Sequence record: PZ583743.1
Length of the DNA stretch: 64,000 nt
DNA from: a phage
Strand: one strand, 5' to 3'
Shown: piece by piece, positions 8,691 through 12,458 of the stretch
Numbering within the stretch: position 1 is the first letter of the stretch
Layout: every line of letters begins with the position of its first letter
The notes under the pieces: generated by a model
Databases searched by the model: none
The model's input: only the letters and a program-made list of their open reading frames with translations
What the model was told of the DNA's origin: nothing
Made by a program: the position numbers and the translations under genes

Positions 8691-11639
8691 ATGGCTACTT
8701 TAAAACAAATACAATTTAAAAGAAGCAAAACTGCAGGTCAACTTCCTGCCGCTTCAGTATTAGCCGAAGGTGAATTGGCTATTAATTTAAAAGATAAAAC
8801 AATTTTCACAAAAGATGACTCAGGCAATGTTATAGAATTAGGTTTAAAATATGGAGGAACAATTGATGGTTCTTTAACTGTTAATGGAAATATAATTGGA
8901 AATTTAACAGGTAACGCTGCAACTGCAACGAAATTAAAAACAGCACGAAAAATTAATGGTATATCCTTTGATGGGTCAAAAGATATCACGCTAACTCCAT
9001 CTGACATAAATGTCAATAGCACAACATTTATAAAAAATAATGGCGAATTACCTGTTGATGCTAATTTAGATGAGTATGGGCCTGTTGAAGAATATCTTGG
9101 AGTTTGGTCGAAAGCAACTTCAACCAACGCTCAACCAGCAAATAAATTTCCAGAACAAAATGCTGTAGGTGTGCTAGAAGTATTTGTGGCCGGTCAATTT
9201 GCTGGTACTCAGAGATATACAACTAGATACGGAAATGTTTATATTCGTTCCTTGACTGCTACATGGAACGGAGTAAATGGTCCGTGGAGTGTGTGGCGAA
9301 ATATTCAATCCGGTACTCGTCCACTGTCAACAACAATTGATCTTAATGATCTAGGAGGCGCTGAACACTTTGGTTTGTGGCGAAATAGTTCAAATTCCAT
9401 TGCTACCTTTGACAGAAATTTCCCAGAAGAAGGATCGTCAGCTCAAGGACTTTTAGAAGTATATGAAGGTGGAAACTATTCTCGCACACAGAGATATACG
9501 ACCAGATTTGGTGTTGTTTATACTCGCTGTCTTACTGCTGCGTGGGATGCTTCTGCGCCTAAATGGGGACCGTGGCAACAAGTCGGTAATGTCACACCGG
9601 CGACTTTCTATGACGGAAACCTGAATGATTTTAAAACTCCTGGGTTATATAATATTTTAGGCACTGATGCCGTTATTAATTGTCCTACAGGCGAAGGTTT
9701 ACCAGCCGTTATTGTTGGTTTGCTGGAAGTTAAACAACGTGCTTCTGGCGGTGCTATTTTCCAAAAATTTACTACTGCCGGAACGGGTGAAACTACTCGC
9801 GATCGTATTTTTGAGCGCGCATATACCGGCGGTGCGTGGGGTGCATGGAACGAAGTATATACATCTTATTCTCTGCCAATTACTTTGGGTATGGGTGGTA
9901 TTAAAGCTCAATTAGCGGAGTTAGATTGGCAAACCTTTGATTTTGTCCCTGGTAGTATGTTTAGCGTTCCTTTGAACAAAATAAAGAACATGCCAGCTAA
10001 TATGGATTGGGGTACGATTGACGGAAACTTAATTATGTTTTCTGTTGGTCCTAGCGAGCACACCAGCACAGGACGTACTGTTCAGGTTTGGCGTGGTACT
10101 GTATCCCAGACAAACTACCGTTATTTTGTCGTTCGTGTATTCGGTAATTCAGGAAATAGAACTTGCACAGTTCGTCGCGTTGTTCTTGAAGATGGTCGCC
10201 ATTCTTGGACGGCACAACAAGATTTTAGGGGCGCGGTTAATCTTTACGGTGCTACATATCTTCGTTCAAACAATAAATTAACATTAGATCCGAGTGCATA
10301 TATTCAAGCACCAGCAAGCGGTTCTGGTTCTAATACTTACGCAAATCAGAATACTACTATTGCGCCATTATATCAGGCCATTGACGATTCAAATAAAAAC
10401 CAGTTTGCTCCTATTGTAAAACAGAAAAACACTGTAACAAATATTACTATGGCTTCTGGTATGGATATTGCTAGTTCAGAATATCGTATCATTGCTCAAG
10501 GTGATTTATCCGCTACTGGAACTACAGCTAATGAATTAGCTACATGGCGTTTCTTGCCGTCTGGCCGATTCATGTCACAAAGCCGAGTTTATGCTGGCGC
10601 AGCATTCCTTAATACCGATGGTAATATTGCTGGTTCAATCTGGAAGAAATATAACAATGCGACAAATTTAGATGCTGCCTTGAATACTCGCGTAGGTAAA
10701 GGCGGTGATACGATGACAGGTCGGTTAACAATCAATGCACCTAATGATTCTATCGTATTATCAACAACTGCTAGTAATTCTTTGCATATTCGCGGTGACA
10801 TAGACGGGACTGGTAACTGGTATATTGGCAAGGGTGGTGCTGATAATTCGCTAGCATTTTATAGCTATGCTACTCAGGCGGCAGTACATATCACAAACAA
10901 TGGTGAGATTTCGCTAAATCCACAAAATATCGCAATGGTTAACGTTAACCGCGATCGTGTACACATTAACGGTTCTGGATGGATTGCTAGACAACCGGGT
11001 GATTGGGGCAACCAATGGCGAGTAGAAGCTCCATTATTCGTTGATCATGGTTATGTTTCACAGGATTGTTATTATCCTATTCTTAAAGCAAGAAGCGTTA
11101 TAACCAATCAAGGATATAGCACCGCTGTTGACTTTGGTATGCGTCGTATTCCATCACAGTGGGGGCAAGCAATCATTCGTGTCGGATCCACGGAGGCTTC
11201 TCCTGATGCTGGACACCCACAAGCTGTGTTTGAATTCCATCATGATGGATTCTTTTATACACCAGGAAATGGTAGCTTTAGCGATGTGTATATTCGTTCT
11301 GACTCCCGTCTCAAGATTAATAAAGAAGAATTAGAATATGGAGCGGTCGAAAAAGTTTGCCGACTGAAAGTTTATATTTACGATAAAGTTAAGTCTATTA
11401 AAGACCGTAGTGTTATTAAACGTGAAGTTGGTATTATTGCTCAGGACCTTGAAAAGGAATTACCGGAAGCTGTATCTAAAGTTGAAGTTGATGGATCTGA
11501 TGTTCTGACAATTTCTAACTCTGCTGTGAATGCTCTTTTAATTAAGGCTATTCAGGAAATGAGTGAAGAAATTAAAGAATTGAAAACGCCTCTCTTTACT
11601 AAAATTGTTCGCAAAATTAGTAAATATTTTAAATTCTAA
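8691..11639 (+). CDS. 37: gp37 long tail fibre distal subunit, T2-type with C-terminal self-cleaving chaperone-like module
   Basis: 982 aa; N-terminus MATLKQIQFKRSKTAGQLPAASVLAEGELA; C-terminal ~113 aa begins SDSRLKINKEELEYG, resembling an S74-type intramolecular chaperone cleavage motif. Confidence 0.9.
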   Translation: MATLKQIQFKRSKTAGQLPAASVLAEGELAINLKDKTIFTKDDSGNVIELGLKYGGTIDGSLTVNGNIIGNLTGNAATATKLKTARKINGISFDGSKDITLTPSDINVNSTTFIKNNGELPVDANLDEYGPVEEYLGVWSKATSTNAQPANKFPEQNAVGVLEVFVAGQFAGTQRYTTRYGNVYIRSLTATWNGVNGPWSVWRNIQSGTRPLSTTIDLNDLGGAEHFGLWRNSSNSIATFDRNFPEEGSSAQGLLEVYEGGNYSRTQRYTTRFGVVYTRCLTAAWDASAPKWGPWQQVGNVTPATFYDGNLNDFKTPGLYNILGTDAVINCPTGEGLPAVIVGLLEVKQRASGGAIFQKFTTAGTGETTRDRIFERAYTGGAWGAWNEVYTSYSLPITLGMGGIKAQLAELDWQTFDFVPGSMFSVPLNKIKNMPANMDWGTIDGNLIMFSVGPSEHTSTGRTVQVWRGTVSQTNYRYFVVRVFGNSGNRTCTVRRVVLEDGRHSWTAQQDFRGAVNLYGATYLRSNNKLTLDPSAYIQAPASGSGSNTYANQNTTIAPLYQAIDDSNKNQFAPIVKQKNTVTNITMASGMDIASSEYRIIAQGDLSATGTTANELATWRFLPSGRFMSQSRVYAGAAFLNTDGNIAGSIWKKYNNATNLDAALNTRVGKGGDTMTGRLTINAPNDSIVLSTTASNSLHIRGDIDGTGNWYIGKGGADNSLAFYSYATQAAVHITNNGEISLNPQNIAMVNVNRDRVHINGSGWIARQPGDWGNQWRVEAPLFVDHGYVSQDCYYPILKARSVITNQGYSTAVDFGMRRIPSQWGQAIIRVGSTEASPDAGHPQAVFEFHHDGFFYTPGNGSFSDVYIRSDSRLKINKEELEYGAVEKVCRLKVYIYDKVKSIKDRSVIKREVGIIAQDLEKELPEAVSKVEVDGSDVLTISNSAVNALLIKAIQEMSEEIKELKTPLFTKIVRKISKYFKF

Positions 11640-11644
11640 CAACA

Positions 11645-11663
11645 AGGGGGAAATGCCCCCTTT
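11645..11663 (+). terminator. Hairpin (GGGGG-aaaug-CCCCC + UUU) after gene 37; weak terminator or RNA structure
   Basis: Read directly; short U-run. Confidence 0.4.
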
Positions 11664-11675
11664 GGAGTATAAATT

Positions 11676-12458
11676 ATGGCAGTAGTTAGTGTTCCTGGTT
11701 GGATTGGAAGTTCAGCCGCAAATGAAACAGGGCAACGATGGATGAGTCAAGCGGCTGGTCAACTAAGATTGGGTGTTCCTTGCTGGATGAGTCAATTTTC
11801 AGGTCGCTCGCGAGAAATTATTCATACACTTGGTGCAGACCATAACTTCAATGGTCAGTGGTTCCGTGATAGATGCTTTGAGGCAGGTAGTACACCTATA
11901 GTGTTTAATATTACAGGTGATTTAGTATCATATTCTAAAGATGTTCCTTTATTCTTTATGTACGGAGATACACCGAATGAATATGTTCAGTTGAATATAC
12001 ATGGCGTAACGATGTATGGTCGTGGCGGGAATGGCGGTAGCAATAGTCCTGGATCAGCTGGGGGTCATTGTATTCAAAATGATATTGGTGGGAGACTAAG
12101 AATTAATAATGGCGGAGCTATTGCTGGCGGTGGCGGTGGCGGTGGCGGCGGATATTATTCTCCTTTTTCACAAATGAGATTGACCTTTGGCGGTGGCGGC
12201 GGTCGTCCGTTTGGCGCTCCGGGCGGATCTATTGATATGCAATCAGGAGCAACTGCTGGTACTATTTCTGCACCAGGCTCAGGGTCTGTGAACGGTATCT
12301 ATAGCGGCGGGTCTGGTGGTGAAGTTGGATCCGCAGGGGGTAGATGTAATATTCGTGGTCAAGGATATGAATACGATGGCGGAGCTGCTGGTTATGCCGT
12401 CATAGGGTCTACGCCGACATGGCAAAACGTTGGAGCAATATATGGTCCAAGAGTATAA
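11676..12458 (+). CDS. 38: gp38 receptor-recognising adhesin (T2-type, glycine-rich)
   Basis: 260 aa (T4 gp38 chaperone is 183 aa; T2-type adhesin ~260 aa); poly-Gly stretches [11 protein letters not shown] and GGGGG. Confidence 0.85.

Follow-up and report, generated by a model that had tools for sequence, protein, structure and literature searches.

A predicted self-cleaving chaperone domain of the Peptidase_S74 family at the C-terminus of gp37, the long tail fibre distal subunit of a Paracelsus-like phage (PZ583743.1)

We analysed a 64,000-nucleotide (nt) stretch of phage DNA (sequence record PZ583743.1, referred to below as the window), with particular attention to the C-terminal portion of the tail fibre protein gp37. 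The corresponding open reading frame (ORF; 8691..11639, 2949 nt, on the plus strand like all other features located here) encodes a 982-amino-acid (aa), 107.3-kDa precursor of the long tail fibre distal subunit. The ORF was assigned to gene 37 because it is flanked by the genes for gp36 and gp38, because its product matches phrog_1699 ('long tail fiber protein distal subunit'; expectation value, E, 7e-204), and because it is nearly identical to the gene 37/38 region of phage Paracelsus; the profile searches also recognised PF20744 (gp37_trimer) in the protein. Its neighbours encode gp36 (PF03903), the adhesin gp38 (PF05268) and the holin t. The 1 kb of DNA surrounding the C-terminal segment of gp37 is 99.8% identical to that of Escherichia phage Paracelsus (Tequatrovirus) and 98.8% identical to that of RB14. 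The two gp37 proteins of the window and of Paracelsus differ at 33 of 982 positions, and the window therefore represents a close relative of Paracelsus, but a separate isolate.

The feature of interest occupies the very end of gene 37. Residues Ser870-Phe982 (11298..11636) form a C-terminal intramolecular chaperone (Peptidase_S74) domain, recognised by a match to PF13884, by a phmmer alignment to 6F45_A and by Foldseek. The domain opens with the putative catalytic motif S870-D-S-R-L-K875 (11298..11315), which comprises the predicted nucleophile Ser870 (11298-11300) and the predicted general base Lys875 (11313-11315), and it closes with a basic amphipathic tail, K-TPLFTKIVRKISKYFKF (11583..11636), that is specific to its lineage and has a hydrophobic moment of 0.69. 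The seven residues F863-SDVYIR-869 (11277..11297), a conserved strand, constitute the predicted end of the mature fibre.

The segment comprises exactly 113 aa (12.9 kDa, isoelectric point 8.9) and starts with SDSRLKINKEELEYG. In both the DNA and its translation the junction reads ...GNGSFSDVYIR-SDSRLKINKEELEYGAVEKV..., and Ser870 is encoded by the codon TCT (11298-11300). An earlier description of this region made from the letters of the DNA (the sequence-only reading) had correctly singled out the last ~113 aa of gp37, but had placed their start at position 11297, which is off the reading frame by one base and yields 22 stops when translated from there. Its description of the segment as charged agrees with the composition, since Asp, Glu, Lys and Arg make up 36% of residues 870-982 versus 17% of the rest of gp37. 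Its description as helical applies to the long C-terminal helix, but in the structural model this helix is preceded by a mixed alpha/beta core.

The assignment to a protein family is clear. PF13884 (Peptidase_S74, 'Chaperone of endosialidase') matches the 113-aa segment with 44.1 bits (E 2.6e-11) and the full-length gp37 with 39.8 bits, the curated gathering score of this family being 22 bits. Profile positions 1-57/58 cover gp37 residues 870-928, with profile position 1 falling on Ser870. The resemblance to S74-type chaperones that the sequence-only reading had proposed is thus borne out by a profile score of twice the cut-off (44.1 versus 22 bits). The nearest solved structure by sequence is the gp37 protein of phage S16 (PDB 6F45_A; phmmer), in which DLNVS-SDRRIK is aligned with DVYIR-SDSRLK.

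Relatives of the segment are numerous. When 1.84 billion cluster representatives were searched exhaustively, 1196 of them were returned at E<=1e-3, and tblastn located relatives in 1308 phage records, including those of T5-like L-shaped fibres and of pneumococcal PblB or hyaluronidase proteins. Motif statistics were derived from 165 proteins retrieved among the relatives found in the representative search, 149 of which align from position 1 of the segment. All of these (149/149) have the Ser, an Asp immediately after it and a Lys at +5, whereas the residue preceding the Ser is variable (Arg in 86 proteins, Thr in 25, Ser in 12). The spacing between Ser870 and Lys875 equals that of S911NGERK916 in endoNF, as read from the K1F sequence, and that of Ser1264 and Lys1269 in T5 pb1 (PMC4690869). 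In the case of endoNF, the equivalence of Ser911 and Lys916 is based on motif spacing and the common Pfam family rather than on a direct pairwise alignment: endoNF was misaligned in a global MAFFT alignment of four C-termini, and hmmalign to the relatives' profile placed only its GVIAQ region. A second motif, G-[IV]-IAQ, is common to the gp37 segment, endoNF and T5 pb1.

The position of the domain within its host proteins is equally characteristic. In 156 of 168 matches it ends 25 or fewer residues from the C-terminus (median distance, 5 residues), in host proteins ranging from 76 to 2517 aa. The 113-aa segment also matches 22 PHROG families, in each case at the extreme C-terminal end; 18 of these families belong to the tail category. 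Judged from these sequences, the distribution is that of a mobile C-terminal module carried by differing N-terminal parts.

Structural predictions are in line with this assignment. Residues 840-982 of gp37 were modelled with AlphaFold2 as a monomer from a shallow alignment (17 homologues, mostly short fragments), giving a mean pLDDT (predicted local distance difference test) score of 61, with values of 68-82 in the domain core. The model contains two short helices and four strands (H46-52 among them), followed by a long C-terminal helix (H104-124). When it was compared with the PDB by Foldseek, ranks 1-11 were all occupied by intramolecular-chaperone structures (7dc3, 3gud, 3gw6, 4uw8), and the lower ranks by noise. 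The best match was the ICA domain of MyRF (7DC3; E 4e-5, template modelling score 0.55), and the others included the GA-1 appendage domain (3GUD), endoNF (3GW6) and T5 pb1 (4UW8). With moderate confidence, the C-terminal domain of gp37 is therefore predicted to consist of an alpha/beta core and a long C-terminal helix, with a fold like those of 3GW6, 3GUD and 4UW8.

Family membership by profile, conservation of the motif, C-terminal position, predicted fold and gene context are all observed for this segment. We consider it very probable (roughly 90%) that the last 113 aa of gp37 are a self-cleaving intramolecular chaperone domain of the Peptidase_S74 type. By analogy with characterised homologues, we also infer cleavage, a chaperone role and an order of assembly for gp37 of PZ583743.1.

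The site of cleavage can be predicted from these homologues. The scissile bond of T5 pb1 is Thr1263-Ser1264, and Lys1269 activates Ser1264 (PMC4690869), while S16 gp37 is cut at S^S (the caret marking the cut), i.e. before the conserved Ser (PMC7917993). Since the bond precedes the conserved Ser in both proteins, that of gp37 should be Arg869-Ser870, between nt 11297 and 11298. The sequence-only reading had placed the cut at the S-D junction; the characterised homologues are cut N-terminal to the Ser, and the predicted site is shifted accordingly by one residue to Arg869-Ser870. The loss of ~113 C-terminal residues that it had anticipated fits a cut at this bond, which would release Ser870-Phe982 (113 aa).

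The following course of events may be envisaged. Trimerisation of the C-terminal domains, each with its alpha/beta core and long C-terminal helix, would align three gp37 chains in register, and the trimerised domains would nucleate folding of the beta-structured fibre tip, starting from its C-terminal end. Once the tip has folded, Lys875 would activate Ser870, which in each of the chains would attack the peptide bond between Arg869 and Ser870. The 12.9-kDa fragments would then leave, and the mature gp37 would have 869 residues (94.4 kDa) and end in ...SDVYIR. Release of the fragments would bare a flat trimeric tip, on which one gp38 adhesin could dock via its N-terminal three-helix bundle (Trp9, Trp22, Trp37). 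Several steps of this scheme have counterparts in the literature. In T5 pb1, an Arg of a neighbouring chain ties cleavage to a correctly folded trimer, and the S1264A substitution blocks processing (PMC4690869). The chaperone domain of S16 is described as being autocleaved after trimerisation, which bares the docking surface for gp38 (PMC7917993, citing Dunne 2018).

The last step involves the product of the next gene. Gene 38 (11676..12458) encodes a tail-fibre adhesin of the T2/T6 type (260 aa; PF05268 GP38, E 1.3e-71; PF21721 Gp38_N, E 2.2e-19). The gp38 of S16 attaches through three conserved Trp residues inserted into pockets on the gp37 base (PMC6851490), and Trp9, Trp22 and Trp37 of the gp38 described here align with Trp residues of T2 and S16 gp38. 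On the gp37 side, 'NDVYIR' is kept ahead of the domain in homologues with otherwise differing upstream sequences, and T2 has NVYIR^SD; the terminal strand before the cleavage site has been discussed for gp37 (PMC7917993). By analogy with these systems, the tip strand F863-SDVYIR-869 is expected to bear the docking surface for gp38, and gp38 is predicted to cap the processed gp37 tip. This docking step is supported by the conservation of the DVYIR strand in T2 and in homologues with other tips, and by the alignment of the three gp38 tryptophans.

Several considerations weigh against this interpretation or restrict it. Cleavage of gp37 in this phage is deduced by homology. The AlphaFold2 model is monomeric and of only moderate confidence, four of the five models being poor, and the Foldseek E-values for the phage chaperone structures are weak (0.03-0.4), the match to MyRF alone being strong. 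T-even fibres also require the general chaperone gp57A, and the gp37 domain by itself is thus unlikely to be sufficient. Finally, the folding sensor of T5, Arg1250, lies 14 residues ahead of Ser1264 and is an oxyanion-hole former contributed by the neighbouring subunit (PMC4690869); in endoNF this -14 offset is likewise occupied by an Arg (R897, read from the K1F sequence). In gp37 the -14 residue is Tyr856, so that the sensor Arg is not kept, and the only nearby Arg is Arg869, at the P1 position. Details of the oxyanion hole may therefore differ in gp37 from those of T5 and endoNF.

Three other explanations of the segment were weighed. It is improbable that a separate phage or host protease removes it and that it acts mainly as a pro-peptide masking the gp38 docking site, with no role as a folding chaperone. 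Drexler, Riede and Henning 1986, as cited in PMC3157838, speak of 'proteolytic processing' in their title, which names no protease, and the accepted model already includes a docking surface that is masked until folding has finished (PMC7917993). However, the segment is a full-length member of an autoproteolytic family (S74) with its Ser-Lys pair intact, the mutation of a single Ser in T5 pb1 abolishes processing in E. coli, where phage factors are not needed (PMC4690869), and reviews place the S16 fibre in the autoproteolytic group.

Slightly less probable still is the view that the segment, although a genuine S74 homologue, is retained as a structural knob at the distal end of the fibre, with gp38 binding elsewhere. 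The derivation of cleavage from homologues, together with the lack of conservation at the position where T5 and endoNF have their sensor Arg, leaves some room for it. A retained knob would, however, hardly account for the strict conservation of the catalytic Ser and Lys (149/149), or for that of the docking tryptophans of gp38 and the DVYIR tip strand of gp37. It also disagrees with what is known of related phages: the S16 homologue is cleaved (PMC7917993), the S16 structure has gp38 on the base of the gp37 beta-helix (PMC6851490), and T2/T6 gp37 is cleaved before gp38 capping (PMC3157838).

That the S74 resemblance arose by chance or from composition, the segment being no real domain but a charged, coiled-coil-like tail, can practically be dismissed: the segment is indeed rich in charged residues and has a long helix at its end, but the Pfam match, well over the curated threshold, sits in its non-helical first half (870-928), for which reason a charged coiled-coil tail was rejected, and the 1196 homologous clusters, the invariant motif residues and the fold search all point the other way.

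Within the chaperone domain, the basic tail is the sole mildly unusual feature. It follows a Pro-break and, as TPLFTKIVRKISKYFKF, spans gp37 residues 966-982 (11586-11636). Among the 165 retrieved proteins it is restricted to the closest (T6-type) homologues, and a few distant relatives end in analogous Pro-break tails (KPWWKKILGL, RPWWKKLLRL). Because the T6-type domain bears this extra amphipathic basic tail (KTPLFTKIVRKISKYFKF), and has an Arg at P1 instead of the sensor Arg at -14, one might speculate that the released 12.9-kDa fragment has a second role (e.g. in associating with membranes, or in recruiting gp38 or gp57A), or that the P1 Arg acts as a folding sensor; we regard this as unlikely.

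Other parts of gp37 and its surroundings also deserve a brief description. On visual inspection, the N-terminal half of gp37 contains three degenerate internal repeats, at ~9165-9305, ~9444-9584 and ~9714-9866, i.e. residues ~159-205 (GVLEVFVAGQFAGTQRYTTRYGNVYIRSLTATW), ~252-298 (GLLEVYEGGNYSRTQRYTTRFGVVYTRCLTAAW) and ~342-392 (GLLEVKQRASGGAIFQKFTT...RIFERAYTGGAW). Internal repeats were reported neither by Pfam nor by a gp37 self-BLAST; phrog_4618 ('tail collar fiber protein') matches a region, residues 106-325, that includes the first two repeats. Further along the protein, a patch of 33 residues (503-535; 10197-10295) holds 17 of the 33 differences from Paracelsus gp37, the remainder being nearly identical. 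From the sequence, it has the appearance of a short mosaic or recombinant stretch of the fibre shaft. The gp38 proteins of the two phages show nine differences, four of which lie in the C-terminal half, between residues 210 and 234. For T6-like adhesins, host range is reported to be alterable by a small number of changes in the hypervariable segments (PMC3157838). A GC-rich hairpin (AAGGGGG-AAAT-GCCCCCTT, 11646-11661) is located directly 3' of the gene 37 stop codon and just upstream of the ribosome-binding site of gene 38 (GGAG). In a promoter and terminator scan, the interval between genes 37 and 38 contained no terminator on the plus strand; the hairpin, which is not followed by a T-run on that strand, scored only as a minus-strand terminator-like structure. 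It may be an element of mRNA stability or translational coupling.

The presence of the chaperone domain has practical consequences. In annotation, the mature gp37 should end at Arg869, giving a virion protein of 94.4 kDa rather than 107.3 kDa. In phage engineering, swaps of the gp37 tip or of the gp38 adhesin must preserve the DVYIR^SDSRLK junction together with the chaperone domain.

The gp37 domain can be compared with several known systems. The model has its best structural match in the ICA domain of MyRF (7DC3), which also shares a GVIAQ-like motif with gp37; MyRF, however, is a eukaryotic membrane-bound transcription factor, and the kinship is at the level of the domain, without a functional tie to phage fibres. 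K1F endoNF (3GW6) and T5 pb1 (4UW8) share with gp37 the PF13884 domain, the Ser(+5)Lys pair, the G-[VI]-IAQ motif and the extreme C-terminal position on a trimeric fibre or spike. Neither gave a significant full-length BLAST alignment with the gp37 domain, and identity is very low. Their domains, with 133 aa in T5 and ~154 aa in endoNF, are also larger and bear long beta-hairpin 'tentacles', they possess the sensor Arg at -14 that is absent from gp37, and their cleaved fibres bind the receptor directly, whereas gp37 would be capped by a separate adhesin.

The gp37 proteins of other T-even-like phages provide further parallels. That of S16 (PDB 6F45) resembles the protein described here in gene order (g36-g37-g38-t), in the place of the domain at the end of gp37, in domain size (112-113 aa), in the domain's opening S-D-x-R-[LI]-K and its G-[LI]-IAQ motif, and in having a gp38 adhesin with three docking Trp residues. 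It differs in that identity (~40%) extends over roughly half of the domain only, in having Ser instead of Arg before the cut, in the tail (KELKDIVKFLTK in S16, KTPLFTKIVRKISKYFKF here), and in the tip, which is unrelated upstream of its last five residues. T2, a member of the same genus, has an NVYIR^SDIRLK junction, a domain 43% identical over 101 aa and an adjacent gp38 adhesin, but its domain (99 aa) is devoid of the basic tail and its gp37 is longer (1341 aa versus 982 aa). Proteolytic processing of T2 gp37 is reported in the title of Drexler, Riede and Henning 1986 (reference in PMC3157838), and the gp37 proteins of T2 and T6 have been described as proteolytically cleaved ahead of capping by gp38 (PMC3157838). 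A further case is that of the Tequatrovirus phages fPS-2/-65/-90, for whose Gp37 a cut at DVYIR^SDGRLKI, followed by release of the chaperone and docking of gp38, was predicted by alignment to S16 (PMC7917993, 2021). This junction and that of the present gp37 (DVYIR SDSRLKI) differ in a single residue (G versus S), both cuts being homology predictions. A chaperone end of gp37 is therefore already known from the structure of the S16 protein, from the biochemistry of T2 and from predictions for sister Tequatroviruses, and the gp37 of PZ583743.1 most probably represents a further member of this group.

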